Assembly (NCBI GenBank): GCA_963778415.1
Contig: CAVZUI010000002.1
Coordinates: 585,663-649,662, forward strand
Source: an uncultured Acidimicrobiales bacterium
GTDB lineage: Bacteria; Actinomycetota; Acidimicrobiia; Acidimicrobiales; VFJN01
Reading direction: 5' to 3'
Length of the DNA: 64,000 bases
Shown: positions 31,400 to 61,419 of the stretch, in pieces
Position numbering within the stretch: the first letter of the stretch is position 1
Layout: every line of letters starts with the position of its first letter
Notes under the pieces: model-generated
The model's input: only the letters and a program-made list of their open reading frames with translations
Database searches by the model: none
What the model was told of the DNA's origin: nothing
Position numbers and translations under genes: made by a program

Positions 31400-32455
<1,056 letters not shown>

Positions 32456-38133: not shown

Positions 38134-39555
38134 ATGAGCGACAAGACCTACATCGTCCGCACCTACGGGTGCCAGATGAACGAGCACGACTCAGAGCGCA
38201 TCGCCGGCCTGCTCGAGGCCGACGGCCTGCGCCCGGCGGCGGGCGTCGACGATGCCGACGTCGTGGTCCTCAACACCTGCTGCATCCGCGAGAACGCCGA
38301 CAACAAGCTGTACGGCCACCTCGGGCAGCTGAAGGCGATGAAGGCCGAGCGTCCCGACATGCAGATCGTCGTCGGCGGGTGCCTGGCCCAGAAGGACCGC
38401 GACCTCATCGTCGAGCGGGCGCCCCACGTCGACGTCGTGCTCGGCACCCACAACGTCGGCCGCGCGGCCGAGCTGCTGGGCGAGCAGCGGTCGGCGGGCC
38501 GGTCGATCGTCGAGATCCTCGAGGAGACGGCGGCCGACGACCACGAGTCGTTCCCGAGCGCGCTGCCGGCGCGCCGCGAGGTGCCGTACGCGGGCTGGGT
38601 GACGATCCAGATCGGCTGCGACAACTCGTGCGCGTTCTGCATCGTGCCCGCGGTCCGGGGCCGCGAGATCAGCCGCACGTTCGCCGACGTGGTGGGCGAG
38701 GTCGAGGCGTTGGCCGTCGACGGCGTGACCGAGGTGACGCTGCTCGGGCAGAACGTGAACAGCTACGGGCGCGACCTCACGCTGGCCCGACGGCAGGCCG
38801 GCGACCACGTGCGGGTGCGGCCGCTGTTCGCCGACCTGTTGCGGGCGGTCGGCGGGGTCGACGGCATCCGCCGGGTCCGGTACACGAGCCCGCACCCCAA
38901 GGACCTGCGGCCCGAGACGATCGCGGCGATGGCCGAGGTGCCCGAGGTCTGCGAGCACCTGCACCTTCCGCTGCAGGCGGGCAGCGACCGGGTGCTGGCC
39001 GCCATGCACCGGGGTTACACGGCCGAGCGCTACCTCGAGCGCCTCGCCGCGGCTCGGGCCGCCATGCCCGACCTGGCCGTCACCACCGACATCATCGTGG
39101 GCTTCCCCGGCGAGACCGACGACGACTTCGAGCGCACGCTCGAGGTCACGGCCGAGGCGGGCTACGACAGCGCCTACACGTTCATCTACAGCCCCCGGCC
39201 CGGCACCGAGGCGGCCGAGCGCGTCGACGAGTTCGTTCCGCCCGAGGTCACCCGCGAGCGCTTCGAGCGGTTGCGGGTGGTGGTCGAGCGCTCGGCGCTG
39301 GCCCGCCACCGGGCGCGGGTCGGCACGGTGGAAGAGGTCATGGTCGAGGGGCCCTCCCGCAAGGACCCCGCGATGACCACCGGGCGCACCGAGCACAACA
39401 AGCTGGTCCACTTCGCGTCGCCCGAGCCGCTGCGGGCGGGCACCTACGTGACGGTCCGCGTCACGGGCGCGGCGCCCCACCACCTCACCGGCGACCTCGC
39501 CGCGGTCACGGTGCCGGCCCGCCACCGCACGCGGATCCCGGTGGCCTCGGCGTGA
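38134..39555 (+). CDS. miaB: tRNA-2-methylthio-N6-dimethylallyladenosine synthase
   Basis: Intact 473 aa. YGCQMNEHDSE, LNTCCIRE, radical-SAM CDNSCAFCIVP, and a TRAM tail. Confidence 0.92.
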   Translation: MSDKTYIVRTYGCQMNEHDSERIAGLLEADGLRPAAGVDDADVVVLNTCCIRENADNKLYGHLGQLKAMKAERPDMQIVVGGCLAQKDRDLIVERAPHVDVVLGTHNVGRAAELLGEQRSAGRSIVEILEETAADDHESFPSALPARREVPYAGWVTIQIGCDNSCAFCIVPAVRGREISRTFADVVGEVEALAVDGVTEVTLLGQNVNSYGRDLTLARRQAGDHVRVRPLFADLLRAVGGVDGIRRVRYTSPHPKDLRPETIAAMAEVPEVCEHLHLPLQAGSDRVLAAMHRGYTAERYLERLAAARAAMPDLAVTTDIIVGFPGETDDDFERTLEVTAEAGYDSAYTFIYSPRPGTEAAERVDEFVPPEVTRERFERLRVVVERSALARHRARVGTVEEVMVEGPSRKDPAMTTGRTEHNKLVHFASPEPLRAGTYVTVRVTGAAPHHLTGDLAAVTVPARHRTRIPVASA

Positions 39556-40097
39556 GCGCGGCGGGCGGCGTCGCCGACCCGCAACCGGTGCTCGAGATCA
39601 CTGCGGAGCCCTTCGACGCTCCGGTGTCGCAGGCGCTGGTCGGGGAGCTGATGGACGACCTCGACGAGCGCTACGCCGCGGACGGTGCGGGCGACGGCGA
39701 CAGCCACGAGATGATGGCGCAGTTCACGGTCCGCGCCCACCAGGTCACCCCGCCGGTGGGGATCTTCCTGGTGGCGTGGCTCGACGGCGAGCCGGCGGGG
39801 TGCGGGGCGGTGCGCCAGGTGATCGGCGGTCCGGCCGAGGCCGGCGAGATCAAGCGGATGTACACCGTGCAGGCGGCCCGGCGCAGGGGGGTCAGCCGCG
39901 CCCTGCTGGCCCGCCTCGAAGCCGAGGCGGCCGCGCTGGGGTACGCCAGCCTGCAGCTCGAGACCGGGTTGCGCCAGCCCGAGGCCATCGCGCTGTACGA
40001 GGCGGCGGGCTACCACCGCATCCCGTCGTACGGCCAGTACGAGGGCGACGAGCTGTCGGTCTGCTTCGCGAAGGACCTCGCACCCTTGCCTCTCTAG
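39552..40097 (+). CDS. GNAT family N-acetyltransferase
   Basis: GTGA overlap with miaB. Acetyl-CoA motif IKRMYTVQAARRRGVSRALLARLE. Confidence 0.8.
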   Translation: MSAAGGVADPQPVLEITAEPFDAPVSQALVGELMDDLDERYAADGAGDGDSHEMMAQFTVRAHQVTPPVGIFLVAWLDGEPAGCGAVRQVIGGPAEAGEIKRMYTVQAARRRGVSRALLARLEAEAAALGYASLQLETGLRQPEAIALYEAAGYHRIPSYGQYEGDELSVCFAKDLAPLPL

Positions 40098-43171: not shown

Positions 43172-44147
43172 ATGGCCTCGGCCCCCTCCGCCCCCCGGCC
43201 CGTCGCCCTCGTCGGCACGACGGCGTCGGGGAAGTCGGCGCTCGCCCTCGCCCTGGCCCGGCGCGACCCCGCGGTGGAGCTCGTGTCGGTCGACTCGATG
43301 CAGGTCTACCGGGGCATGGACATCGGCACCGCCAAGCCGACCCCCGCCGAGCAGGCCGAGGTCCGGCACCACCTGCTCGACATCGCCGACCCGTGGGACG
43401 AGTTCACGGTGGCCGCGTTCGCCGCCGAGGCCCGGCGGGCCGTCGCCGACATCGCGTCGCGGGGCCGGCGGGCGCTCCTCGTCGGCGGCACCGGGCTCTA
43501 CCTGCAGGCCGTCGTCGACGACCTGCGACGTCCCGGGTCGGTTCCCCGACGTGCGCGCCGCGCTCGACGCCGAGCCCGACACCGTCGCCCTGCACCGGCG
43601 GCTCGCCGCCCTCGATCCCACCGCCGCCGGGCGCATGGAGCCGACGAACCGGCGCCGGGTCGTCCGGGCGCTGGAGGTGACGCTGGGCAGCGGTCGTCCG
43701 TTCTCCTCCTTCGGGCCCGGCCTCGGGGCGTACCCGCCGAGCCCGTTCCTCCTGGTCGGCGTGCGGCTGCCGCACGACGTCGTGGCCGACCGCATCGCCG
43801 CCCGCTACGAGCAGCAGATGGCGGCCGGCTTCCTGGACGAGGTCGAGCGGCTGCTGGCCGATCCCCGGGGCCTGTCGCGCACGGCCGGGCAGGCGCTCGG
43901 CTACCGCGAGCTGGTGGCCCACGTCACCGACGGGGTGCCCCTCGACGAGGCCCTCGACCTGGCGGTCCGGCGGACCCGGCGCTTCGCCCGGCGCCAGGCG
44001 TCGTGGTTCCGCCGCGATCCCCGGATCCGCTGGCTGGACGCGGCCGCCGACCCGTCGACGCTGCTCGGCGCCCTCGAGGGCGAGGTGGCGGGCGCGGGCG
44101 ACGGAGGGGAAACGGGCACGCACGCCGCTCGCCGTCGGGCAGACTGA
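43172..44147 (+). pseudogene. miaA: tRNA dimethylallyltransferase, one frameshift (~43525)
   Basis: P-loop [16 protein letters not shown] and [18 protein letters not shown]. The second frame carries RRVVRALEV and [23 protein letters not shown]. Confidence 0.9.
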
Positions 44148-44155
44148 ACCCCGAC

Positions 44156-45002
44156 ATGCGTCTCACCAAGCACCACGGCCTGGGCAACGACTTCCTCGTC
44201 CTGCTCGACCCCGACGCCTCCCACCCGCTCGATGCCGAGGTGGCGCGCGCCCTGTGCGACCGCCACACGGGCATCGGCGCCGACGGCCTCATCCGGGCCA
44301 CGCCGGCCGAGCCGGGCGAGGGCGCGACGTCACCGATGGAGCTGCTCAACGCCGACGGCTCCCGGGCCGAGATGAGCGGCAACGGCATCCGGTGCCTGGC
44401 CCAGGCGCGTCCTCCTCGCCGATCCCGGGCTCGGCCCCACCGATCCCCATCGTCACCGACGCCGGGCTGCGCACGGTCACGGTCCACGACCAGGTCGACG
44501 CCGTGACCCACAGCCTGTCGCGTCGGCGATGGGCACCGGCCGAGGTCGAGGGCGAGGCGCCCGAATGGGACGGCGGCGCCGTCGGCCGCGCCGCTGCTCG
44601 TCGACATGGGCAACCCGCACCTCGTGCTCGACCTGTCGGCCGCCGGCCCGGGCGCGCTCGACGCCGTCGACCTGGTCGAGCTCGGCGAGACCGTCAACGG
44701 CAAGGTCCCGGGCGGCGCCAACGTGCGAGCTGCTCACCGCGGCCGACCAGCCCGGCGACCGTCGCCATGCCGCGCCTACGAGCGCGGGGTCGGGCCGACG
44801 CTGGCCTGCGGCACCGGGGCGTGCGCGGCCGCGGCCGCCGCCACGAGTCTGGGGCCTGGCCGGCGACCGGGTGCCGGTCGCGCAGCCGGGCGGCACCGCC
44901 GAGGTCACGCTCGGCGAGCCGGCCGCCGGCGACGAGGTCGTTCTCCGGTGGCCGGCCACCTACGTGGCCGAGATCGGCCTCGGAGCGTCGCCGTGGCGCT
45001 GA
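44156..45002 (+). pseudogene. dapF: Diaminopimelate epimerase, at least 5 frameshifts
   Basis: [12 protein letters not shown] and [13 protein letters not shown] (frame 2). [12 protein letters not shown] (frame 1). MGNPHLVLDL (frame 2). ELLTAADQPGD (frame 0). YERGVGPTLACGTGACAAA (frame 2). GDRVPVAQPGGTAEVTL..stop (frame 0). Confidence 0.85.
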
Positions 45003-46293
45003 TCGAACGGACCTTCCGGGAGAGGATCGTCCTGGTCGGCGTCACCATCCCGCCCGAGACGCGTCGAGGACACCGAGCAGCCGGCTCGACGAGCTGGCCC
45101 TGCTGGTCGACACCGCCGGCGCCGACGAGGTCGGCCGGGTCGTCCAGCGCCGCCAGTCGCCCGATCCGCCCACCTACGTCGGCAAGGGCAAGGCCGAGGA
45201 GCTGCGCGAGGTGGCGCTCGCCATCGACTGCGACACGGTCGTGTTCGACGACGAGCTCACGCCCGCCCAGCAGTGCAACCTCGAGAAGATGCTCGGTCGC
45301 ACCGCCATCGACCGCACCGCGGTGATCCTCGACATCTTCGCCCAGAACGCCCACAGCCAGGAGGGCAAGGCCCAGGTCGAGCTGGCCCAGCTCCGCTACC
45401 GGCTGCCGCGGCTGCGGCGCCGGGCACGGCGCGCTGTCGCAGCAGGCCGGCGGCATGTCGGCCGCGGGCGGCGCCCGCATCGGCACCCGTGGCCCGGGCG
45501 AGACGCAGCTCGAGGTCGACCGCCGGCGCATCGTGCGCCGCATCCACAAGCTCGAGGCCGACCTGCGCGAGATCGACCGCCACCGCGCGACCCAGCGCAA
45601 GGCGCAGCGCCGGGGCCAGCTCGCCAACGGTCGCCATCGTCGGCTACACGAACGCCGGCAAGTCGACGCTGCTCAACCGGCTCACCGACGCCGGCGTGCT
45701 GGTCGAGGACCGCCTCTTCGCCACCCTCGACGCCACCACCCGCCGGCTCGAGCTGCCCGGCGGCGAGGCCGTGCTGCTCACCGACACCGTCGGGTTCATC
45801 CGCAAGCTGCCCCACCAGCTCGTCGAGGCGTTCCGGTCGACGCTCGACGGTCGCGGTCGACGCCGACCTCCTCGTGCACGTGGTCGACGCCGTCGGCCCC
45901 CGACCCCGAGTGGCAAGATGCGACGCCGTCCGCGACGTGCTCGCGCGAGATCGGCGCCGACGACGTGCCCGAGCTGGTGGCGTTCAACAAGGCCGACCTG
46001 GCACCCGACGAGGCCGAGCGGCTGCGCGACGACCCACGAGGGCTCGGTGGCGTTCAGCGCCGCCACGGCGAGGGCATCGACGAGCTGCTCGTGGCCACGA
46101 TCGGCGACCGGCTCCGCGCGCTGACGACGGTCGTCGAGCTGGTCGATCCCCTTCGACCGCGGCGACGTGCTGGCCGCCGTCCACCGGGAGGGCGAGGTGC
46201 TCGAGCGAGGAGGCCGGCGAGGGCGGCATGCGCCTGCGCGGCCGCTTCGACGACGCCTCGGTCGGCCGCTTCCGCGAGTACGTGGTCGGCTGA
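44993..46293 (+). pseudogene. hflX: GTPase HflX, about 11 frameshifts
   Basis: Conserved blocks are scattered over all three frames: ERIVLVGV; [50 protein letters not shown]; [15 protein letters not shown]; [33 protein letters not shown]; LLVHVVDA; LVAFNKADL; GEGIDELL. Confidence 0.85.
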
Positions 46294-46294
46294 C

Positions 46295-47402
46295 GTGGGC
46301 GCTCCCCGCGGCTTCGAGCCGCCGCCGTACCCGTACGACCGGCTCGACGTGCTGCACAAGGAGGCCGAGAAGGTCCCCGGCGGGGTCGTCGACCTGTCGA
46401 TCGGCACGCCCTGCGACCCGCCGCCGGCGGTCGTCGTCGAGGCGCTCGGATCGTCGGGCGCCGAGCGCGGCTACCCGCCGTCGGTCGGCACCGCCGCGTT
46501 CCGCGAGGCGGCCGCGGGCTGGCTCGACCGCCGCTTCGGCGTCGCCGTCGACCCGCAGCACCTGGCCGCCTGCATGGGCACCAAGGAGTTCGTGGCCGGG
46601 GTCCCGCACTGGCTGCGCCTCCGCTCGCCCGACCGCGACACCGTGCTGTACCCGCGATCAGCTACCCGACCTACGCCATGGGGGCGACCCTCGCCGGGTG
46701 CCGGGCGGTGCCCTACGCCGACGCTCGCCGACGTCGACCCGGCCGACGCGGCCCGTGCGCTGTGCCTGTGGGTGAACTCACCGGCCAACCCGACCGGCGA
46801 GCTCGACGACCTCGGCGCCGCCGCGGCGTGGGGTCGGGCGCACGACGTCCCGGTCCTGTCGGACGAGTGCTACATCGAGTTCACCTGGGACGGGCCCGGC
46901 GCGCACGATCCTCGGCACGAGGGCCTCGACGGCGTGCTGGCCGTCCACTCGCTGTCGAAGCGCTCGAACCTCGCCGGCGCCCGGGCCGGCTTCTACGCCG
47001 GCGACCCCGATCTCGTCCACTACCTGTCCGAGGTGCGCAAGCACGCCGGGTTCATGGTGCCCGGGCCCGTGCAGGCCGCGGCGGTGGCCGCCTTCGGCGA
47101 CGACGCCCACGTCGACGAGCAGCGGGCCCGCTACCAGGGCCGCCTCGACGCTGATGGTCGACGCGCCTCGCGACCGCCGGGGTCGACTGCCCGTCGCCCG
47201 ACGGGGCGTTCTACGTGTGGGCGCCGGCACCGGACGGCGACGCCTGGGCGCTGGCCCACCGGCTCGCCGCCGAGGGCGGGGCCATCGTGGCGCCCGGGCG
47301 AGCTTCTACGGCGAGGCGGGCGCCGGTCACGTGCGCATCGCCGTGGTGCAGCCCGACGAGAAGATCGCCCTCGTCGCGCGGCGACTCGCCGCGGCGCGGT
47401 GA
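46295..47402 (+). pseudogene. dapC: Succinyldiaminopimelate aminotransferase, at least 5 frameshifts
   Basis: PYPYDRLD..DLSIGTPCDPPP..GYPPSVGT, then SYPTYAMGATLAG in another frame. NSPANPTG..SDECYIEF..HSLSKRSNLAGARAGFYAGD (PLP lysine block). FYVWAPAPDGDAW and FYGEAGAGHVRIAVVQP lie in further frames. Confidence 0.8.
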
Positions 47403-48249: not shown

Positions 48250-49290
48250 TCAGGCGTTGCTGTGCAGATCGGCGTTGAGCTCGACCTGGCCGCCCGCACG
48301 GTTGAGGACCTCCACGGCGCCGCTCGTGCTGTTGCGCCGGAACAGCAGCCCGTCGGCGCCGCTGAGCTCGGCCGCCTTCATCACGGCGCCGTCGGGCAGG
48401 GTCACGCGGGTCCCGGCCGTGACGTAGAGGCCCGCCTCGACCACGCAGTCGTCCCCGAGCGAGATGCCGATGCCGGCGTTGGCGCCGATGAGGCACCGCT
48501 TGCCGACGTGGATCACCTCCTTGCCGCCGCCCGACAGCGTTCCCATGATCGAGGCGCCGCCCCCGACGTCCGACCCGTCGTCGACGATCACGCCCGCGCT
48601 GATGCGGCCCTCGACCATCGCCGTGCCGAGGGTGCCGGCGTTGAAGTTCACGTAGCCCTCGTGCATCACGGTCGTGCCCTCGGCCAGGTGCGCCCCCAGC
48701 CGGACGCGATCGGCGTCCGCGATGCGCACGCCGGTCGGCACGACGTAGTCGGTCATGCGGGGGAACTTGTCGATGCCGAACACCTGCACCGGGGCGCCCG
48801 CGGCCCGCAGCGCCAGCCGGGTGCGCTCGAACCCGTCGGGGGAGCACGGCCCCGCGCTGGTCCACACCACGTTGTTGAGCACGCCGAACAGGCCGTCGAG
48901 GTTGATGGCCCGCGGGCGGACGAGCCGGTGCGACAGCAGGTGGAGGCGCAGGTAGGCGTCGTGTGCGTCCACCGGCGGGTCGGCGAGCGAGGCGATGCCG
49001 GTCACCACCGCCACACGGTCGACGCCCCGCGCCGCGTCGGGACCGCAGAGGCGGTCGACGTCCACACCGAGCTGGGCCGATGCCGCCGCGGGATCGAGGC
49101 GGGCGGTGCCGGGGGCCCCGCCGTCGCCGAGTGCGGCCCCGACCGCGTCGGTGACCGCCCGGTCGACGTCGCCGGCGCCACCGCCCACGAGGGCGGGGGA
49201 GGGGTACCAGGTGTCGAGGACCTGGCCATCGCCGGTCACGGTGGCCAGGCCGACGCCCCAGGCGCCGGCGTTCGTCGAGGAGTCAGTCAC
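48250..49290 (-). CDS. dapD: 2,3,4,5-tetrahydropyridine-2,6-dicarboxylate N-succinyltransferase
   Basis: Intact 346 aa from a GTG start. Left-handed beta-helix hexapeptide region [58 protein letters not shown]. Confidence 0.85.
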
Positions 49291-49391
49291 GGCCGCACAC
49301 GGTATTCGTGCGTCGTCCCCACCGGCGACACAGATGTCGCACCCGTCGACCCCGCATGCCCGCGCCAGGCTCGGCACTAGCCTCGACCGCC

Positions 49392-50456
49392 GTGACCGAC
49401 CTGATCGAGGCGACCGCCGCCCTCGTCGCCGTCCCCTCCGAGAGCCACCACGAGGGTGCGCTGGCCGACCTCGTCGAGCAGCGGCTCCGAGCCGCACCCC
49501 ACCTGCGCGTCGATCGGGTCGGTGACAACGTCGTGGCCCGCACCGACCTCGGGCGCGAGCAGCGACTCGTCGTCGCCGGACACCTCGACACGGTGCCCGC
49601 CGACGGCAACGGCAGCCCCCGCGTCGACGGTGACGTCCTGTGGGGCCTGGGGTCCGCCGACATGAAGGGCGGCCTCGCCGTCATGCTCGAGCTCGCCACC
49701 ACGGTCGCCGAGCCCGCGGTCGACGTCACGTGGGTGTTCTACGCGGGCGAAGAGGTCGCCGCGGTGCACAACGGCCTCCGCACCCTGTTGGCCGAGCGGC
49801 CCGACCTCGTCGACGGCGACGCAGCCCTGCTGGGCGAGCCCACCGACGGCGTGCTCGAGGTCGGGTGCCAGGGCTCGATGCGCCTGGCGGTGACGCTGCG
49901 CGGGGCGCGGGCCCACACCGCCCGCCCCTGGATGGGCCGCAACGCCCTGCACCGGGCCGGCCACCTGCTGGCGGCGCTCGACGCCTACGAGGGCCGCCGT
50001 CCGGTGCTCGACGGCTGCGAGTACCGCGAGGCCCTCCAGGCGGTGTTCGTCGAGGGCGGAGTGGCGGGCAACGTCGTGCCCGATCTCGCCGTCGTGACGC
50101 TGAACCATCGGTTCGCTCCCGATCGCACGGCGGCCGAGGCCCGAGCCCACGTCGAGCAGGTGATCGCACCGCACCTCGAGCCTGGCGACGACGTCGAGGT
50201 GGTCGACGTGGCCGACGCCGCCCCGCCGGGATTGCAGCACCCCCTGCTGGCCACGCTGCGGGCGCGCAACGACCTCGATGTGCGCGCCAAGTTGGGTTGG
50301 ACCGACGTCAGCCGGTTCGCCGCGGCCGGCATCCCGGCTGCGAACTTCGGCCCCGGCGACTCGGCGTTGGCGCACACACGCGACGAGCGTGTCGAGCGCT
50401 CGTCGCTCGAGGTCGTCCGCGATGCGCTGGGCGACCTACTGCGCCACGGCGCCTGA
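49392..50456 (+). CDS. dapE: Succinyl-diaminopimelate desuccinylase (M20 peptidase)
   Basis: Intact 354 aa. [36 protein letters not shown]. Confidence 0.85.
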
Positions 50457-50486
50457 CGTGCACGTGTGGGACCGACGCCGTGGACC

Positions 50487-50523
50487 AGCGGCGCCGGCCC
50501 CCACGAGACCTGGCCGCGCCGCT
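50487..50523. terminator. Bidirectional hairpin between convergent dapE and lexA
   Basis: AGCGGCGCCGGCC-12 nt-GGCCGCGCCGCT, a 12-13 bp stem with one bulge. Confidence 0.45.
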
Positions 50524-51155
50524 CAGAGGCGACGCATCACGGTGACCACCCGGCCGAACACCTGGACCTCGGCGGGCGAATAGACCATCGGACCGAGGCG
50601 GGGGTTCGCCGGCTGCAGGACGACCCGGTCGCCGTCGGTGGTGAAGGTCTTGACCGTGGCTTCGTCGCCCGGGATGCCTGCGACCACGATGTCGCCCTCG
50701 TCGGCCGTCGACTGCGAGCGGCAGACGACGTAGTCGCCGTCGAGGATGCCGGCCTCGATCATCGAGTCGCCGCGCACCCTGAGCATGAAGAGGTCTCCCT
50801 CGCCGGTGAAGTCGGCCGGGAGCGGCAGCACCTCTTCGACGTTCTCCTGGGCGAGGACGTCGGTGCCGGCGGCCACGTCGCCCACGAGGGGGACGTGGCG
50901 GACCGGGCGCCGGTCGATGACCGCGTCGGACGTCGGGTCCCACCGGACCTCGAGGGCGCGCGGCTTGGTGGGGTCGCGGCGGAGGTAGCCGCGCTTCTGC
51001 AGCGCGGCCAGGTGGGCGTGGACGGTGGAGGGCGAGGTGAGGCCGACGGCCTCGCCGATCTCGCGCACCGAGGGCGGGTACCCCCGCTCGCGCATGTGCT
51101 GCTCGATGATCTCGAGGACCTCACGTTGGCGGGCGGTGAGTGTCTGCTGGGCCAT
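50523..51155 (-). CDS. lexA: SOS repressor LexA
   Basis: MAQQTLTARQREVLEIIEQHMRERGYPPSVREIGEAVGL.. wHTH domain, then the S24 peptidase with GDSMIEAGI and GDIVVA. The ATG at 51155 is preferred over the longer ORF. Confidence 0.93.
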   Translation of the reverse strand: MAQQTLTARQREVLEIIEQHMRERGYPPSVREIGEAVGLTSPSTVHAHLAALQKRGYLRRDPTKPRALEVRWDPTSDAVIDRRPVRHVPLVGDVAAGTDVLAQENVEEVLPLPADFTGEGDLFMLRVRGDSMIEAGILDGDYVVCRSQSTADEGDIVVAGIPGDEATVKTFTTDGDRVVLQPANPRLGPMVYSPAEVQVFGRVVTVMRRL

Positions 51156-51180
51156 GGTGCGCTCCTTCACGCAGAACGGC

Positions 51181-51192
51181 GAACGCACGTTC
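51181..51192. promoter_or_regulatory. LexA box GAACGCACGTTC (lexA proximal)
   Basis: GAAC-N4-GTTC, 26 nt upstream of the lexA ATG. Confidence 0.75.
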
Positions 51193-51257
51193 TGGTGGGA
51201 ACGTACCACCGGCCCCTCGCGAAGACAAACACCCGTTCGGGGGAAACGGTTGACGGC

Positions 51258-51269
51258 GAACGCAGGTTC
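51258..51269. promoter_or_regulatory. LexA box GAACGCAGGTTC
   Basis: GAAC-N4-GTTC in the lexA/LysM divergent region. Confidence 0.7.
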
Positions 51270-51286
51270 GTGGTTTGGTGGCACTC

Positions 51287-51298
51287 GAACGGGCGTTC
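51287..51298. promoter_or_regulatory. LexA box GAACGGGCGTTC
   Basis: GAAC-N4-GTTC, immediately upstream of the RecA-NDp-like element of the LysM gene. Confidence 0.7.
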
Positions 51299-51305
51299 GT
51301 CCCGC

Positions 51306-51331
51306 AAAGTGTCACACCCCCTCAGGAGACT
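51306..51331 (+). promoter_or_regulatory. RecA-NDp-like promoter of the LysM gene
   Basis: AAAGTGTCACACCCCCTCAGGAGACT: TGTCACAC (51310-51317), 8 nt, then GAGACT. The ATG is 6 nt further on, which implies a leaderless mRNA. Confidence 0.55.
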
Positions 51332-51337
51332 GGGCCC

Positions 51338-51754
51338 ATGGTCGCCATCCAGATCCCCCGCCCGGCAGTCGAATGGGCTCCGGTCCCCGAGACCTCGCCC
51401 GACGTCGCACCGGGGGCGGTCCCGTCCCGCCGTCCCGCCCCCCGTCTGCCCGACCGGGCCACCCGCATCCGTCGGCGGCGGCTCGTCGCCCTCCTGGCCG
51501 TCGTGGTGCTCGCGTTCGCCCTCGTCGCCGCCGTCCGGGCGGTGTCGGGCCTGGCGGCGGTCGACAGCTCGCCCCGGCCCGAGCCGATCTCGGGCACCGA
51601 GTACGTCGTCCAGCCGGGCGACACGCTGTGGACGATCGCGGGGCGCATCGCCCCCGACGACGATCCGCGGGCGGTCGTCGATGCGCTCCGCGCCGCCAAC
51701 GGTGGCCGCGCCGAGCTCGAGGTGGGCACGCGGCTCGACCTCGCGGTCGGCTGA
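51338..51754 (+). CDS. LysM domain membrane protein (Rv2719c-like, divergent from lexA)
   Basis: A TM anchor (LVALLAVVVLAFALVAAV) followed by the LysM motif YVVQPGDTLWTIAGRI. Its position opposite lexA matches mycobacterial synteny. Confidence 0.8.
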   Translation: MVAIQIPRPAVEWAPVPETSPDVAPGAVPSRRPAPRLPDRATRIRRRRLVALLAVVVLAFALVAAVRAVSGLAAVDSSPRPEPISGTEYVVQPGDTLWTIAGRIAPDDDPRAVVDALRAANGGRAELEVGTRLDLAVG

Positions 51755-52393
51755 TCAGCGCTCGGGCGCCAGCTTCTCGAACTCGTACGACAGCGCCTCG
51801 CGCGCGGTGCGGAGCTGGGTCTCGACCGACTCGAGGGAGGCGAGGAACGTGCGGGACCAGGCGAGGCGACGTTCGAGGTCCTCCAGCTCGGGCGAGTGGT
51901 TCTCGCCCTCGCGGGCTCGTAGCTCGACGACCGCCTGCTCCGCCGCCGCGTCGGCCTGCGAGGTCGCATCGTCCAACACTCGCTGCGCGTGGTCGTGCGC
52001 CTCTGCCGCCAGGCGGCGGCAGTACTCCTGCGTCTGGGCGACGTAGGCGTCGGCCTCCTGTTGCGCCCGCGACAGGATGTTCACGGCGTCGACGGTGGCC
52101 GACGAGGTGTCGGGCGACCGACCGTTCACGTCCTCGGTGCGCGACTCGCTCTGCTCCCGCTGCCATTGCACCAGCGTGTTCTTGTAGTGCGTGACCTTGG
52201 CCCGCAGCGAGGTCTCGGCCGCGTCGCGGGTGGCGATCTCGTCGGCGACGCGCTGGAGGAACGACGCCACCTCGTCGTCGGCCAGGCCGCGACGCCCGAT
52301 CGGCGTGCGCGAGAACTGCATGGACCGCACTCGGTCGGGGGTGAGGCGCTGGACCGTCCGCCTGGCGTACTGCTCGTCGGCGGTATCGGTCAT
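51755..52393 (-). CDS. DivIVA domain protein
   Basis: DivIVA N-terminal signature LTPDRVRSMQFSRTPIGRRGLADDEVASFLQRVADEI followed by coiled-coil-like sequence. ATGA overlap with the upstream globin/FNR gene. Confidence 0.75.
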   Translation of the reverse strand: MTDTADEQYARRTVQRLTPDRVRSMQFSRTPIGRRGLADDEVASFLQRVADEIATRDAAETSLRAKVTHYKNTLVQWQREQSESRTEDVNGRSPDTSSATVDAVNILSRAQQEADAYVAQTQEYCRRLAAEAHDHAQRVLDDATSQADAAAEQAVVELRAREGENHSPELEDLERRLAWSRTFLASLESVETQLRTAREALSYEFEKLAPER

Positions 52394-53521
52394 GGCGTCG
52401 TCTCCTGGCTCCCGAACTCCTCGACATGCACGAGCGTGGCTGTGGCGCCCGCCTGCATCACCGTTGCGCGGCTGCCGCGCACCATCTCGGGTGAGCCGCA
52501 GATGTAGATCTCCTGTTCCGGCCAAGCTCCGGTGCGCAGCGCCACGTCGACCACCGTGCCCGACTCGACCGTGCCGGTGCGACTCGGCTCCTCCGACACG
52601 CACGGCACGAGGCGCAGCCAGTCGAGCCTGTCGGCCAGCGCGGCCATGGCCGGACAGGTCGTAGAGCTCGCGGTGGTAGCGGGCGCCCCAGAACAGGTGC
52701 ACGCGGCGGAACCCGCCGTCGGACTCGATCTGGGCGATCAGCGCCTTCATGGGGGCCAGCCCGGTGCCGCCCGCCAGCATCACGACGTCACGCCCCGGGC
52801 CGAGCGGCATCGTGAGGCGGGTGCCGACGGCGGCGCCCCCGCGCAGGACGTCACCCGTGTGGGTGCTCTGCACGATGGCCGTGCTGACCGGACCGCCGCC
52901 CACGAGGCGCACGTGCAGCTCGAACGAGCCGTCGGGCCCCGGGAGGGATGCAGGCGTGTAGTACCGCCACAGGCGAGGGCGTTGCGGGACCTCCACGGCG
53001 ATCGACTGGCCGGCGAGGTAGGGGAGCGGGGCGTGCGGCGCCACCCGCAGCACGGCGACGTCGACGCTGCGCCGCTCGATGTCCACCACCGTGAGGTCCC
53101 ACCACGGGGGCTGGTCGACGACGGCGTCGGCGGCACCGATCATCACCTCGGCGACGATGCCGTAGGCGGTCGCCCAGTCCTGCGCCACGTCGGTCGTCCA
53201 ATCGGAGCCGCTGAAGTGCTCGAGCGTGGCCAGCAGCGCCTGGCCGACCGCGGGGTAGTGGTCGCGGACGACGGCGAACTTCCGGTGGTCGCGCCCGAGC
53301 TGCTGCAGCACGGGCACCACCGAATCGAGGTCGTCGACGCCGCTGACCACCTGACCGAGGGCGGTCACGAGCTTGTCGCGCTGGTTCGCCATGCTGACGG
53401 GGAACATCTCGCGCGTGTGGGGGTGGTGGAGGAACAGGTACGAGTAGAAGAACAGCGGGACCTGGTCGCCGTGCGCGGCGACCAGGCCCCAGCTCTTCTT
53501 CAGGCGTATCGGGTCGACCAC
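52390..53521 (-). pseudogene. Globin-FNR fusion (flavohemoprotein-like oxidoreductase), one frameshift (~52648-52655)
   Basis: N-terminal globin domain (KKSWGLVAAHGDQVPLFFYSYLFLHHPHTREMF). FAD motif RYYTPAS and NAD(P) motif VMLAGGTGLAPM. The C-terminus (IYICGSPEMV) is in ORF 52390..52647. Confidence 0.75.
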
Positions 53522-55929: not shown

Positions 55930-58867
55930 ATGGCACTCGCACCCGAGCAGGCCGGCATCGGCATCCGCCGCCACTTCACCACCGACGGCGTCCACCCCTA
56001 CGACGAGGTCGACGTGGGAGCGGCGCGACGCCCGGATCACCAACTTCCGGGACGGGTCGGTCGCCTTCGAGCAGCTCGGCGTCGAGTTCCCCACCACCTG
56101 GTCGCTGAACGCCACCAACATCGTCGCCCAGAAGTACTTCCGCGGCACCCTCGGCACCCCCGAGCGCGAGTCGTCGCTGCGCCAGGTCATCGACCGGGTC
56201 GCCGACACGATCACCCAGTGGGGCGTCGAGGGCGGCTACTTCGTCGACGACGACGAGGCCGAGACCTTCAACGCCGAGCTCAAGCACCTCCTCGTCACCC
56301 AGAAGGCCGCCTTCAACTCGCCGGTGTGGTTCAACATCGGCGTCCCGGGCGTGCCCGCAGCAGGCGCTCGGCCTGCTTCATCCTGTCGCGTCGACGACAA
56401 GATGGACTCGATCCTCAACTGGTACGTCGAGGAGGGCACGATCTTCAAGGGCGGCTCCGGCTCGGGCATCAACCTGTCCCGCATCCGCTCGTCGGTCGAG
56501 CTGCTCAAGGGCGGCGGCACCGCCTCGGGCCCGGTCAGCTTCATGCGGGGCGCCGACGCGTCGGCCGGCACCATCAAGTCGGGCGGCAAGACCCGCCGCG
56601 CCGCCAAGATGGTCATCCTCAACGTCGACCACCCCGACGTCGAGGAGTTCATCTGGGTGCAAGGCCCGCGAGGAGAAGAAGATCCGCGTCCTCGAGGAGG
56701 CCGGCTTCGACATGAGCCTCGACGGCACGGACATGGCGCTCGGTCCAGTACCAGAACGCCAACAACTCGGTGCGGGTCACCGACGAGTTCATGCAGGCCG
56801 TCGTCGACGACGCCGACTGGCACCTGCGCGGCCGTCACCACCGGCGAGGTCGTGCAGACCGTGCAAGGCCCGCGACCTGATGCGCCAGATCTCGCCAGGC
56901 GGCCTGGGAGTGCGCCGACCCCGGCATGCAGTTCGACACCACGATCAACCACTGGCACACCGCCGCCAACACCGGCCGCATCAACGGCTCGAACCCGTGC
57001 AGCGAGTACATGCACCTCGACAACTCGGCGTGCAACCTGGCCAGCCTCAACCTGCTGAAGTTCCTCGACCTCCGACGACGGGCGCCGGCACCACCGACAC
57101 CTTCGACGTCGAGGGCTTCAAGCACGCCGTCGAGGTCATCTTCACCGGCCAGGAGATCCTCGTCGGCCGGGCCGACTACCCGACCGAGGCGATCGGCGAC
57201 ACCTCCCGGCGCGTTCCGCCAGCTCGGCATCGGCTACGCCAACCTCGGCGCCCTGCTGATGGCGCTCGGCCTGCCCTACGACACCGACGAGGGCCGGGCC
57301 TACGCCGCGGCCATCACCGTCGCTGATGACCGGCCACTCCTACGCCACGCTCGGCCCGCACCGCCGCCCGCATGGGCCCCTTCGCCGGCTACGCCGAGAA
57401 CCGCGAGCACATGCTCCGCGTCCTGCGCCAGCACCAGGAGGCGGCCGCCGCAGATCGACGAGGAGCTCGTGCCCGCCGAGCTGCTCGCGCGCCGCCCAGC
57501 AGTGCGTGGGACGAGGCCGTGCGAGCTCGGCGAGCCGCTACGGCGTGCGCAACTCGCAGGCGTCCGTGCTCGCCCCCACCGGCACGATCGGCCTGATGAT
57601 GGACTGCGACACCACCGGCATCGAGCCCGACCTCGGCCTCGTGCAAGATGAAGAAGCTGGTCGGCGGCGGCACGATGTCGATCGTCAACCAGACGGTGCC
57701 GCGGGCGCTGCGCCGCCTCGGCTACACGCCGGAGCAGATCGACGAGATCGTCGCCTACATCGACGAGCACAAGTCGATCCTCGGCGCCCCGCACCTGGCC
57801 GCCGAGCACCTGCCCGTGTTCGCCTGCTCGATGGGCGACAACACCATCCACTACTCGGGCCACGTGCGGATGATGGCGGCGGTCCAGCCGTTCATCTCCG
57901 GCGCCATCTCCAAGACGGTGAACATGCCCGAGGAGGCCACGGTCGAGGAGGTCGAGCAGCTCCACATCGACGCCTGGAAGCTCGGCGTGAAGGCCATCGC
58001 CATCTACCGCGACAACTGCAAGGTCGCCCAGCCGCTCTCGACGGCCAAGAAGGAGGCGGTGAAGGACGAGCTCGCCGAGGGCCTGATCGCCGCCGGCGCC
58101 GAGCCGCAGGTGGTCGAGAAGATCGTCGAGCGGGTCGTCGAGAAGGTCATCAAGGTGCCGACCCGCGAGAAGCTGCCCGCGCAACCGCACCTCGCGCACC
58201 TTCGAGTTCCGGGTGGCCGACTGCAAGGGCTTCGTCACCGTCGGCGAGTACGAGGACGGCCGCCCCGGCGAGATCTTCCTGCGGATCTCGAAGCAGGGCT
58301 CGACCCTCGCCGGCATCATGGACGCCTTCGCCATCTCGGTGAGCTACGGCCTCCAGTACGGCGTGCCGCTGCGGGTCTACGTCGAGACGTTCACCAACAC
58401 CCGCTTCGAGCCGGCCGGCATGACCGACGACCCCGACCTGCGGATCGCCACGCTCCCTCCTCGACTACATCTTCCGCCGCCTGGCGGTCGACTACCTGTC
58501 GCTCGAGGAGCGGCCGGAGCTCGACATCCTCACCACCGGCGAGCGCACCCAGCCGACGCTGCCCGGCGTCGAGGAGACGGTCACCGAGACCCGCCAGGGC
58601 ACCGACGATGCCGGCCGACCCGCCGAGCCTCGATCGCCAGTCAGCCCACGCTGCTCGACGACCTCAGCGACGCCCCGAAGGAGCCTCAGCCTCCTCGAGC
58701 GGGCCGGCGTCACCGACGCCGGCGCCGGCCAAGCCGATCGCCGGCCATCCCGCCCGAAGGCCAGCCACAGCGACGCCCCGTACTGCATGCAGTGCGGCGT
58801 CCAGATGCAGCGCGCCGGCTCCTGCCACGCCTGCCCCAGCTGCGGCAGCACCAGCGGCTGCAGCTGA
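55930..58867 (+). pseudogene. nrdJ: Adenosylcobalamin-dependent (class II) ribonucleotide reductase, roughly 20 frameshifts
   Basis: Conserved blocks are spread over all three frames. They include SLNATNIVAQKYFRG; AAFNSPVWFNIG; SACFILS; IFKGGSGSGINLSRIR; GTASGPVSFM; TRRAAKMVILNVDHPD; GSNPCSEYMHLDNSACNLASLNL; FRQLGIGYANLG; [19 protein letters not shown]; ISKTVNMP; and [28 protein letters not shown]. The C-terminal zinc finger is CMQCG..CHACPSCG. Confidence 0.9.
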
Positions 58868-58877
58868 TCCACCCAGT

Positions 58878-59366
58878 TCACGTCATCTCGCCGGGCAGCC
58901 TGCTGGCCTGCTCGATCCAGGAGACGAGTCGGTCTTCGTCGATGTCGTCGGCCTCGTGGATGTCGAAGTAGCGCACCTCGTCGTGCTTCGAGGCCTTGGG
59001 CGGGGCCGGATCGAGTGATGTCCCTCGGAAGAACGTCAGCTGGACGTACTGGGTGTAGCAGCGGAACGCGAGGAACCAGCCTTCTCCCTCGAAGCCGTAG
59101 AACGGTTGGTTCCACTTCACGGCCTTGTGCACGTGCGGGACCGTGCGAACGATGAGGTCGTCGAGCCGCTGGCCGATGCCTCGTTTCCACCCGGGCATGG
59201 CGGCGATGTAGTCCTGAACGGGGCCGTCACCTTCCCCTTTGGGGATCTGCGGGTTGCCGCCCGACAACAGCCTGGGTCCCGTGCCGGACTTCGCACGAGG
59301 GGTCCGGGACCTCTTGTTGGTCGAGTTCGTGCGGTCGCTCATCGGCACTCCATCGTCGGCTGGCAC
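58878..59366 (-). CDS. DUF1801 (YdhG-like) domain protein
   Basis: DYIAAMPGWKRGIGQRLDDLIVRTVPHVHKAVKWNQPFYGFEGEGWFLAFRCYTQYVQLTFFRG. The start may be the second Met at 59342. Confidence 0.7.
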   Translation of the reverse strand: MPADDGVPMSDRTNSTNKRSRTPRAKSGTGPRLLSGGNPQIPKGEGDGPVQDYIAAMPGWKRGIGQRLDDLIVRTVPHVHKAVKWNQPFYGFEGEGWFLAFRCYTQYVQLTFFRGTSLDPAPPKASKHDEVRYFDIHEADDIDEDRLVSWIEQASRLPGEMT

Positions 59367-59400
59367 CCCGCGGTGGGGTTGTGGGACGAGGTTCTCGTCA

Positions 59401-59799
59401 TCACGGCAGGCTGAGCTGCCAGGTCACGCCATGGCGATCACCGACCCAGCCGAAACGGGTGCTGAACCCGTAGTTGTCGAGAGGCATGAACACCTGGCCG
59501 CCATCGCTGAGTCGATCGAAGAGTCGCTGAAGTTCCTCGTTGTCGTCGCAGTCGATCCAGAGTGACACCGCAGGGGTGAAGCCCCATTGGTGACGGACGG
59601 GGCTGTCGGAACAGCTGAAGTCGCTGCCGGCGAGACGGAACATCGCGACCTTGACGGTGCCCTCGGGTCCGCCGTCCCCCGGGCCGTAGTGGTCGATCTC
59701 GACGAGTTCGAAGTCGTCGAAGACGTCGCGGTAGAGATCGAGTGCCGCAGTGGCGGCGCCATCCTGGAACGTCAGGAAGGTTCGAAGACCCTGGGTCAT
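59401..59799 (-). CDS. PhnB-like VOC superfamily protein (3-demethylubiquinone methyltransferase-like domain)
   Basis: MTQGLRTFLTF..VKVAMFRLAGSDFSCSDSP..FTPAVSLWIDC..FGWVGDRHGVTWQL. Confidence 0.7.
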   Translation of the reverse strand: MTQGLRTFLTFQDGAATAALDLYRDVFDDFELVEIDHYGPGDGGPEGTVKVAMFRLAGSDFSCSDSPVRHQWGFTPAVSLWIDCDDNEELQRLFDRLSDGGQVFMPLDNYGFSTRFGWVGDRHGVTWQLSLP

Positions 59800-59997
59800 G
59801 GGATCGACCCTAACGACGTGTCGTCGCATCTGTCCGGCCCCCGGTGGTGGCGGTCGGACGTCAATCGGAACTCCGCCGACATGACGTCGTTCGACGTGGG
59901 TGTGCGGGGGGTTTGGTGGCGGTTCACCGGGACGTTCCGTCCTCGCAAGGCACCCTTCCTAGATTCCAGGCCATCGTCCGCCGCCCAGGGAGGCATC

Positions 59998-61354
59998 GTG
60001 ACCGAATCCAGGACCTCGTTGAATCGCAGGTCGTTCCTGCAGACCGCGATCGGCGCCGGCGCGGGTGTCGCGCTCGCCGGCCCGTTCGGCGCCCTCGGCG
60101 CCCGTGCGGCCGGCGCCGCGCCGAGCAAGCCGTCGGGGCTCGGTTACGGGCCGCTCGCTCCCGTGCGGGACCAAACGACCGGGCTCGAGCTGCTCAACCT
60201 GCCGAGGGGCTTCGAGTACATGAGCTTCGGCTGGCGCAACGATGTCATGTCCGACGGCACGCCGACGCCCAGCGCCCACGACGGCATGGCCGCCTTCCGC
60301 GACGGCGACCTCGTCCGCGTGGTCCGTAACCACGAGCGCGGCAACGGCACGCCGTTCGCCCCGTCGTCCGCCACCTACGACCCGCTGGCCAGCGGCGGCA
60401 CCACCACGCTCGTGTTCGATCCCGACGCGGGCGCGCTGGTCGAGGACTACTCCAGTCTCAGCGGCACGATCCGCAACTGCGCAGGCGGGCCCAACCCGGC
60501 GGGCTGGCTCACCTGCGAGGAGACGACCGACATCAACGGCACGACCCGCCACGGGTACGTCTTCGTCGTCCCTGCCAACGGTCTGTCCGACGCGGCGCCG
60601 ATCGTCGGCATGGGGCGGTTCTCGCACGAGGCCACGGCCACCGACCCGACCACCGGGATCGTCTACGAGACCGAGGACACCGGCAGCTCGGCGCTCTACC
60701 GGTACGTGCCCACCGATCCGGCCGACCTGGCCGCCGGCGGCGTGCTCGAGGCCATGGCGCTCGAGGGCACCGTCGACACGCGGCTGTGGGGCACTGGCGA
60801 CGAGCGCGGCGGCCGAGTGGGTGGTCGTCGACTCGCCCGACTGGGGACCCGGGCGAGCCGACCCCGTGGCAACAGGCCCAGGCCAAGGGCGCGGCGCGCA
60901 TCGTCCGCGGCGAGGGCGCCTGGTACGGCAACGGTGTCATCTACATCATCTCCACCAGCGGCGGGGTCGGCCGGGCAGGGCCAGGTGTTCGCCTACGACC
61001 CCATCGCCGCCACGTTCACGTGCGTCTTCGCCTCACCGTCGTCGGACGTGCTCAACGCTCCCGACAACGTGTGCGTCAGCCCGCGCGGTGGCCTGGTCCT
61101 GTGCGAGGACGGCAGCGGCCGGGAGTTCATGCACGGCCTCACGCCCGATGGCGACGATCTTCCCGTTCGCCGAGAACAACGTCGTGCTGCCTCCCGAGTA
61201 CCAGGACCTCAAGGGCTATGCGGGCGACTTCACCGGTTCGGAGTGGGCGGGTGCCACGTTCGAGCCGCGGAACGGCAACTGGTTGTTCGCCAACCTCCAG
61301 AGCCCGGGCATCACGTTCGCCATCACGGGTCCCTGGCGGCAAGGCGCCCTCTGA
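59998..61354 (+). pseudogene. PhoX/DUF839 family secreted phosphatase-like protein, four frameshifts (~60805, ~60850, ~60965, ~61150)
   Basis: GGGAGG RBS and GTG start. Tat signal SLNRRSFLQTAIGAGAG. Blocks include PRGFEYMSFGW, NCAGGPNPAGWLTCEE, GMGRFSHEA and GAWYGNGVIYIISTSGG. Further blocks are APDNVCVSPRGGLVLCEDG and EWAGATFEPRNGNWLFANLQSPGITFAITGPW. Together they span four frame segments. Confidence 0.75.
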
Positions 61355-61419
61355 GGGGGCGAGCCCTGACGGGCGCGGCGCGGCGGCGGCCGTCCACCAC
61401 TGAGGGCGAGTGTCGGGGA

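Follow-up and report, generated by a model that had tools for sequence, protein, structure and literature searches.

A window of 64,000 nucleotides represents a draft-quality contig of an uncultured, Acidimicrobiales-like bacterium with high G+C content, and very probably stems from the assembly of a long-read metagenome. Four consecutive genes in it (miaA, dapF, hflX and dapC) are broken by about 30 frame changes in less than 4 kb. Independent contigs of the same species read these genes in open frames, which argues that the breaks are consensus errors of the draft assembly and not mutations of the organism or gene loss. From the sequence comparisons described below, we put the probability of this reading at about 0.88.

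The window has a G+C content of 74%, so that third-position G+C readily reveals the coding frame. Based on both the third-position G+C plot and the Viterbi path of a codon-usage HMM, positions 44144–47375 consist of approximately 18 frame segments, and elsewhere the segments span 0.5–2.5 kb. The codon HMM alone cannot separate gene junctions from frameshifts, and an in-frame stop test at segment ends and the detection of Pfam domains across stitched junctions were added to it. A frameshift-aware protein-to-DNA alignment, as suggested in the initial annotation, was performed with intact orthologues from related contigs as queries, and required 9 frame moves over dapF (aligned at 44156–44999), 13 over hflX (44993–46290) and 7 over dapC (46295–47393), as well as 1 in miaA. 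The frame hopping first noted in dapF, hflX and dapC was thus seen in the frame plot, the Viterbi path and the alignment, but its earlier counts (at least 5, approximately 11 and at least 5, respectively) were too low. The three proteins aligned end to end at 81–92% identity with no in-frame stops, and the repaired genes were likewise stop-free, in agreement with the earlier description of the fragments; the conserved motifs quoted at that time (51 protein letters and SLSKRSNLAG) are all present, in different frames. For tblastn, default settings were used, since searches without composition correction or the low-complexity filter gave spurious matches to off-frame high-G+C ORFs.

The affected stretch, hereafter hot spot 1, was placed at about 43500–47400 (no strand assigned), its bounds following from the higher divergence and denser indels in comparison with the sister contig (L081). 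Hot spot 1 differs from this contig by 10–25 mismatches and 4–12 indels per 500 bp, compared with 0–11 mismatches and 0–2 indels per 500 bp at 47.5–55.5 kb, and the pairwise divergence is 4.0% in the hot spot versus approximately 0.5% in its flanks. The initial annotation had set the hot spot at 44156–47402; this stretch itself was upheld, but the start lies earlier, as the miaA break is at approximately 43527 and the divergence from L081 rises from approximately 43.5 kb. At a background of about 0.37 breaks per kb, calculated from approximately 20 HMM-flagged candidates outside both hot spots, 16 of which were confirmed, the probability of at least 30 breaks in 3.8 kb is approximately 3e-29.

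All four genes lie on the + strand. The gene miaA (tRNA dimethylallyltransferase; 43172–44147) carries one +1 break at approximately 43527–43529, which forms the upstream edge of hot spot 1; its alignment spans residues 1–329 of 329 with one frame move, and tblastn passes from frame 2 to frame 3 at approximately 43537. Nine frame-breaking insertions were located in dapF (diaminopimelate epimerase; 44156–45002), at approximately 44409, 44439, 44519–20 (+2), 44544, 44593, 44727, 44756, 44769 and 44843, in addition to an in-frame +3 at 44917–44923. The 13 breaks in hflX (ribosome-associated GTPase; 44993–46293) are at 45062, 45085, 45426, 45628, 45849, 45895, 45909, 45923, 45945, 46027, 46066 (‒1), 46145 and 46206, and this gene also carries an in-frame +3 (GAG) at 46082. 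The dapC-like gene for a class I/II aminotransferase (46295–47402) contains 7–8 frame breaks: the protein alignment, covering residues 1–364 of the 366-aa orthologue on contig L084, showed 7 frame moves, and the DNA alignment showed 8 separate indels, at 46655 (‒1), 46720, 46901, 46915 (+2), 47148, 47166, 47293 and 47304.

Evidence for consensus errors came from independent contigs. The JGI contig Ga0190270_10158571 (L088), a 1.85 kb sequence of the same species corresponding to 43568–45434, is 96.0% identical to the window and 97.7% identical to L081. Over its reach, which is the first half of hot spot 1 only, L088 lacks all 12 frame-breaking window indels between 44409 and 45426, and it reads the 3′ end of miaA, the whole of dapF and the 5′ part of hflX each in one open frame. 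Confirmation of the indels by independent sequence had been named beforehand as evidence against an artefact; the outcome in L088 was the opposite. The sister contig, ENA contig_72211 (L081), which is 96.7% identical to the window, lacks 24–28 of the window's indels, and the MEGAHIT contig L086, 99.2% identical over 49473–52821, differs there by a single indel, an extra base in the window that breaks hmp. These three contigs bear out the preference for local consensus indel errors expressed in the initial annotation. Two further relatives (86–90% identical) are also free of the breaks. The gene calls of the related contig L082 are full-length for miaA (329 aa), dapF (277 aa) and hflX (428 aa, with no breaks), whereas dapC, called at 456 aa, is too long there and has a probable frameshift at the 3′ end. 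In a four-way DNA alignment of 43937–47378, 24 frame-breaking insertions and 3 deletions were confined to the window, and 4 further events coincided with indels of L084, including one in-frame +4/‒1 pair. A protein search for same-species short-read fragments with the C-terminal 149 aa of HflX gave no match above 86% identity.

L081 itself contains 5–7 breaks, at positions that differ from those of the window and with only one inside hflX. This independent assembly also shows elevated breakage across the same 3.9 kb, which speaks against the artefact reading, as the stretch of hot spot 1 would have some property common to both assemblies. The two sequences each carry a +1 no more than 3 nt apart at approximately 44436–44440. 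In the automatic annotation of L081 these genes are already split, the pieces being 90, 396 and 161 aa long.

Removal of the private indels left MiaA (324 aa), DapF (277 aa) and HflX (429 aa) full-length and stop-free, and DapC open across the 358 codons that the reference spans. The repaired proteins scored above the NCBIfam curated cut-offs of their families, at 237 bits for MiaA (TIGR00174; cut-off 149), 171 bits for DapF (TIGR00652; cut-off 115) and 430 bits for HflX (TIGR03156; cut-off 217), and the repaired HflX is 92% identical to full-length HflX proteins of 428 aa. The best family for DapC was TIGR03539 (DapC_actino, the actinobacterial succinyldiaminopimelate transaminase), which the L082 orthologue, used as the query with its probably frameshifted 3′ end, matched at 311.5 bits (cut-off 355.65); the location beside dapD fits this assignment. 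As predicted from these proteins, the genes beneath the breaks are functional, with MiaA, DapF and HflX complete after repair and DapC over 358 codons.

Next to their absence from related contigs, the window-private indels have a distinct spectrum. Between 38 and 59 kb, 58 insertions and 13 deletions were found (n=71; approximately 10 of these, at 38.3–43.9 kb, were compared with L081 alone and are hence unpolarised). Almost all are +1 events outside homopolymers, and same-base neighbours of the inserted bases are under-represented, so that the classic Nanopore signature of deletions in homopolymer runs does not describe them. In 13 of 26 cases, the added base and the adjoining third-position base make up a C/G pair (6.2 expected for random insertion, P=0.002), or in 13 of 22 in the set of 22 insertions (5.1 expected, P=0.0004). 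Insertion beside third codon positions as such (20/26) showed no excess over chance (P=0.18), and the other 6 of the 26 fall between codon positions 1 and 2. Several insertions look as if the two alleles of a G/C polymorphism had been placed next to each other; at most insertion sites, the supposed second allele is absent from the four relatives.

The private substitutions behave differently from noise. They are distributed over the codon positions as 15:16:17, with a modest first- and second-position excess, and the class of 'private' substitutions is poor in fast third positions. An interpretation as pure noise, based on the even 15:16:17 distribution, was dropped in view of this third-position depletion, of the 94–96% G/C among new third-position bases and of the avoidance of conserved HflX sites. 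For the latter, conservation was derived from 120 homologues, in which 69% of positions are at least 95% conserved: only 4 of the 18 window-private HflX residue changes fall on such positions, compared with 12.5 expected, and 13 of the 18 private residues occur in homologues. Judged by these patterns, most substitutions in the hot spot are true alleles, and the errors appear to be confined to the indels, with perhaps some substitutions among them; approximately 4 of the 18 HflX changes, together with the first- and second-position excess, could be substitution errors or a sign of relaxed selection. A search for block-wise mosaicism between haplotypes found none, and alleles common to other relatives interleave site by site.

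The same phenomenon is present in a second hot spot, a class II ribonucleotide reductase gene at 55945–58870 (+ strand) with 27 frame moves, which is an intact ORF of 960 aa in L081. Its allele is 11% divergent from three relatives, its private substitutions are bunched (103 spacings do not exceed 2 nt, compared with 40 expected), and it is followed by 2.5 kb without homology to the sister contig.

The coincidence of hot spot 1 with raised true divergence makes it look like a stretch of mixed or poorly supported haplotype, and favours strain mixing or such a haplotype as the source of the errors. Over two stretches of approximately 3–4 kb, the contig may follow or mix a haplotype unlike the well-supported one, with a divergence of 4% in miaA–dapF–hflX–dapC and of 11% in the ribonucleotide reductase gene. 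With scant or conflicting read support, the consensus caller would then make approximately 8–9 single-base errors in each kb, almost always by insertion. We infer both the sequencing platform and the exact cause, whether mixed strains, a local drop in coverage or a retained bubble branch. In ENA, the nearest contigs carry names of the type contig_NNNNN. Bins of related genomes labelled MFD come from a Nanopore project with Flye assembly and one round of Medaka, and Nanopore assemblies below approximately 40-fold coverage are documented to retain indels that fragment gene calls.

A plain local lack of coverage, in which just one or two error-prone long reads, maybe of a rarer strain, carry the path across each hot spot and polishing would have been unable to clear their raw errors, needs no mixing of haplotypes; it is still an artefact explanation rather than a competing biological one. 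It is a possibility that we entertain with reserve. The hot-spot edges are sharp at the kb scale, the noise levels differ between the two hot spots, the private substitutions of hot spot 2 come in bursts, and the 2.5 kb without sister homology behind it look like a path that switched genome. However, raw Nanopore reads typically err by deletion and in homopolymers, whereas insertions dominate here, and most private substitutions appear selected rather than random. In addition, the project that probably made such contigs removed low-coverage contigs, although this link is presumed.

Tentatively, the insertions might be technical while the hot spots themselves are true recombination tracts between co-existing strains of one soil population of Acidimicrobiales, a combination that we consider conceivable but would not bet on. 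Alleles 4–11% apart would then lie in genomes that are otherwise approximately 99.5% identical, and the divergent ribonucleotide reductase allele would adjoin a swapped 2.5-kb segment with phoX. If this were true, frameshift hot spots in long-read metagenome contigs could be cheap markers of strain-level recombination.

A systematic basecalling or polishing error at given sequence or methylation contexts is improbable. The C/G pairing of the inserted bases and the neighbouring +1 events of the window and L081 are in its favour, but such an error would be expected along the whole contig, whereas the indel density changes approximately 25-fold at the hot-spot edges at constant composition; moreover, no common motif was visible by eye in the insertion flanks.

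We also weighed recent, real pseudogenes, with dapF, hflX, dapC and the ribonucleotide reductase gene lost and neighbours or other pathways compensating. The deposited sequence does contain the indels, divergence in the stretch genuinely exceeds that of the flanks, and the small first- and second-position excess of substitutions points the same way. In contrast, approximately 30 indels versus approximately 48 private substitutions within 3.4 kb is far off natural ratios, and the majority of insertions runs against bacterial mutation, which is deletion-biased. The repaired genes contain neither stops nor larger deletions. Private HflX changes avoid conserved sites, which indicates purifying selection on the gene and is a misfit with 13 accumulated frameshifts. 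The private lesions are absent from four related contigs (the 4 further events align with L084 indels), and essential genes are broken too, since in the same 64 kb frameshifts occur not only in the reductase gene but also in ftsK and rnj, as well as in dapA, ppc and rimO. The pseudogene alternative left standing in the initial annotation is thus contradicted by the indel direction, the indel/substitution ratio and the selection tests, and we regard it as very improbable. Hardly more credible are real frameshifts in part of the population, with neighbours making up for the loss, which would be far more surprising. Programmed recoding that restores the frames (ribosomal frameshifting, transcriptional slippage or RNA editing) can practically be dismissed: its sole support is that the fragments are conserved and stop-free, but it would need approximately 30 sites in 3.2 kb without a common motif seen by eye, the orthologues in L082, L084 and L088 have single frames at these sites, and we know of no bacterial recoding system with so many sites.

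Compared with known systems, the breaks resemble the 'pseudo-pseudogenes' of Nanopore assemblies, in which single-base indels split conserved genes into recognisable pieces, are absent from accurate assemblies and disappear after correction; such gene-splitting long-read indels were the motive for tools such as proovframe. The documented Nanopore error is mainly in homopolymers, whereas here insertions make up 58 of 71 events, homopolymers are almost never the site, and the events are concentrated in two truly divergent stretches of 3–4 kb. Collapsed strain heterogeneity would match the agreement of the hot spots with allelic divergence (4% and 11%, versus approximately 0.5% in the flanks), the interleaved alleles without blocks and the insertions resembling paired G/C alleles, but not the second allele, mostly unseen in four relatives, or the 6 of 26 insertions that separate the first codon position from the second.

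Reductive pseudogenisation, as in Mycobacterium leprae and recent symbionts, brings stops, deletions, relaxed substitutions and lesions common to related strains. The frameshifts in biosynthetic and housekeeping genes beside intact neighbours are reminiscent of it, but a test of the window for these hallmarks found none. Programmed frameshifting of the prfB or dnaX type, in which a gene is likewise read in more than one frame, relies on a single conserved site with a slippery motif in each gene, unlike the 7–13 unconserved sites per gene in the window.

We see no biological novelty in the frame breaks. Taken at face value, they would mean loss of lysine/diaminopimelate synthesis, HflX and ribonucleotide reductase; with the breaks being assembly errors, such metabolic or pseudogene inferences from contigs of this kind would be wrong. 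The value of the observation is in quality control only, and frameshift-aware correction or re-polishing is required before use. The dense errors are located exactly where strains diverge, and the +1 C/G pairs at third positions are unlike textbook homopolymer error; developers of polishers for mixed strains may find this C/G-pair insertion signature relevant.

Across most of the window the consensus is of good quality, with stray indels at about 0.35 per kb, and at least 16 dispersed single frameshifts were found outside the hot spots. The earlier statement that the neighbouring genes are intact was correct for miaB over the part with homology and for dapD and dapE, but not for miaA and many other genes with single breaks. 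As controls, dapD (48253–49290, ‒ strand), the protein of which is 100% identical to P0001, dapE (49380–50435, + strand), lexA and nrdR each showed no frame moves.

The window has a G+C content of 74% throughout, so that the real reading frame is visible as approximately 95–100% G+C at third codon positions. Between 44144 and 47375, the plus-strand frame switched approximately 18 times, as judged from the frame plot and a codon-usage Viterbi path; frame segments elsewhere in the window were typically 0.5–2.5 kb long. Successive parts of the same proteins fell in different frames in tblastn searches with ORFs of related Acidimicrobiales contigs, and the motifs cited in the initial annotation were all found, distributed across the three plus frames.

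Frame breaks in hot spot 1 (miaA, dapF, hflX and dapC, approximately 43.5–47.4 kb) were counted by a frameshift-aware protein-to-DNA alignment written for the purpose, using intact orthologues as queries. One frame move was detected in miaA, nine in dapF and 13 in hflX, each aligned end to end, and seven in dapC, for which residues 1–364 of 366 were aligned; identity was 81–92%, and no in-frame stop was present, as had been noted at first reading. The breaks described in dapF, hflX and dapC were thus confirmed; many breaks per gene had been correctly recognized, but the original figures (at least five, approximately 11 and at least five) were too conservative. The same break sites were recovered by four-way DNA alignment. 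With the same method, dapD, dapE, lexA and nrdR of the window showed no frame moves, and miaA, dapF, hflX and dapC of the sister contig L081 showed one, two, one and one, respectively. Given a background of approximately 0.37 per kb, based on approximately 20 flagged candidate breaks outside both hot spots, 30 breaks within 3.8 kb would be expected with a probability of approximately 3e-29.

Close relatives were reached via DapD, an intact neighbour of hot spot 1. L081 (ENA ERZ25039591 contig_72211, 75.7 kb) encodes a DapD protein identical to that of the window and is 96.7% identical to window 38228–58892. Two further contigs, L082 (1.37 Mb) and L084, are approximately 86 and 89% identical; in L082, miaA (329 aa), dapF (277 aa) and hflX (428 aa) are called at full length and the dapC call (456 aa) is over-long, while dapC of L084 is 366 aa. 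The window and L081 are separate records, differing by 506 mismatches and 137 gaps, which cluster at 43.5–47.5 kb and 56–58.9 kb; just 0–11 mismatches and 0–2 indels per 500 bp were found at 47.5–55.5 kb. The sample of L081 also yielded a second related contig (ERZ25039591 contig_49972), approximately 86% identical to the window, with fragmented calls for ribonucleotide reductase, nrdR, globin and dapD, indicating that related strains or species co-occur there, with lower-quality contigs alongside.

In the region common to all four sequences (43937–47378), 24 frame-breaking insertions and three deletions were private to the window, and L081 carried four private frame-breaking events at other sites. 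When JGI metagenomes were searched for the pattern of a conserved 31-mer across one insertion site, a single contig was identified, Ga0190270_10158571 (L088, 1851 bp). It is 96.0% identical to window 43568–45434 (21 gaps) and 97.7% identical to L081 (two gaps). In L088, an uninterrupted frame runs through each of the miaA 3′ end, the complete dapF gene and the hflX 5′ part, and all 12 frame-breaking indels of the window within its span are absent. A contig assembled with MEGAHIT from a different sample matches window 49473–52821 at 99.2% identity, and its sole indel relative to the window is an extra window base at approximately 52652, which breaks hmp. The private indels comprised 58 insertions and 13 deletions (approximately 10 of them, from 38.3–43.9 kb, compared with L081 only), and nearly all were +1.

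Removal of the private indels gave stop-free MiaA (324 aa), DapF (277 aa) and HflX (429 aa), and a DapC open across 358 reconstructed codons; no stops or larger deletions were left. Repaired DapF, HflX and MiaA exceeded the NCBIfam cut-offs, and HflX matched 428-aa HflX proteins over the full length with up to 92% identity. The top family for the aminotransferase was actinobacterial DapC, with a score under the cut-off of that family. The absence from L088 of the window indels within its span, the restoration of open frames and the un-biological indel spectrum support the earlier preference for an artefact. The frame breaks are a real observation and reveal nothing new biologically; what is mildly unusual is solely the signature of the errors, together with its link to divergence between strains.

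The dense errors fall where true divergence is raised: between the window and L081, it is 4.0% in hot spot 1 and 11% in the reductase gene of hot spot 2, against approximately 0.5% in the flanks. L081, an independent assembly, has five to seven breaks in the same 3.9 kb, more than elsewhere in L081. Alleles common to other relatives alternate from one site to the next and form no blocks, and private substitutions occur in short bursts, near indels more often than by chance. The inserted base and the adjacent third-codon-position base formed a C/G pair in 13 of 26 cases at 44409–47304 (approximately six expected; P = 0.002) and in 13 of 22 at 56013–58690 (approximately five expected; P = 0.0004). 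Together, these features favour a consensus that would have drawn on sparse or mixed reads of a divergent haplotype. Alternatively, one or two noisy reads may simply have bridged a gap in coverage. Classic homopolymer error does not match the signature, as no homopolymer context of inserted bases was found in either interval. The contig names and related bins labelled MFD fit a putative Nanopore assembly with Flye and Medaka. Several insertions give the impression that a synonymous G/C polymorphism was retained with its two alleles next to each other. At 44436–44440, for example, the window reads ACCG, L088 ACG and L081 ACC with an extra G before it (GACC); the +1 insertions of the two independent assemblies lie within 3 nt of each other, and the position may be polymorphic or locally prone to error.

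Private substitutions were distributed over codon positions as 15:16:17 in the window and 4:2:26 in L081. The window ratio had suggested pure noise, a reading dropped after three tests. At third positions, 94–96% of the new bases were G/C, matching genuine coding sequence; in HflX, only four of the 18 private residue changes fell at positions conserved at ≥95% in 120 homologues, although such positions make up 69% of the protein, and 13 of the 18 residues also occur in homologues; and plain pairwise counts against L081 were third-position-rich (34:26:76). These sequence comparisons indicate that most of the substitutions represent true allelic variation under selection. Real pseudogenes are thereby strongly argued against, since drift long enough for 13 frameshifts would bring far more random substitutions. 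The indel spectrum, with its excess of +1 insertions and a repair that leaves no stops, is likewise un-biological, and joint loss of ftsK, rnj, reductase, hflX, dapA and dapF is impossible while all fragments stay stop-free.

Hot spot 2, the class II ribonucleotide reductase gene (55945–58870), is the same phenomenon as this assembly artefact, with 27 frame moves in the window and an intact 960-aa ORF in L081. It also carries private insertions of 20, 14 and 7 nt, and the window allele is 11% from L081, L082 and L084, which are only 3–5% apart. The 2.5 kb 3′ of it (58919–61412) contains a phoX-like gene (PF05787) with three frameshifts and lacks homology to its 2.9-kb counterpart in contig_72211 (L087 14807–17688); homology returns at 61412 (98.6%). 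Either this segment has been replaced in a strain-specific manner or the join is chimeric.

Scattered single frameshifts affect ppc, an AurF-like gene (two), dapA (two), rnj, ftsK, rimO, cinA (two), a PIG-L gene, hmp and phoX, at approximately 547, 5913, 6004, 11693, 11887, 13127, 17818, 26401, 27531, 27923, 42221, 52652 and 60813–61155. They were confirmed by Pfam domains spanning most stitched junctions or by other comparisons, and their density, approximately 0.35 per kb, indicates draft quality of the whole contig. Further breaks are possible at 32814, 33730 and 35150, in branched-chain ABC transporter genes. At 38134–40097, the window encodes MiaB in frame 1, with a proper stop at approximately 39555, and in frame 3 a GNAT acetyltransferase (39546–40097); in L081 and L082, the two are called as a single fused product of 654–658 aa. 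The window and L081 differ here by one indel, at 39242. Truncated HflX fragments of 119–238 aa (P0286, P0343, P0352 and P0355) were found on other ENA contigs of 214–730 kb, and broken hflX calls may be common in such assemblies. The window recA (31400–32455) is a plain 351-aa gene; RecA ORFs of 780–1156 aa occur in several related Acidimicrobiales contigs (L003, L006 and L016), where the homology is interrupted by approximately 355-aa blocks whose sequence looks like one or two inteins.
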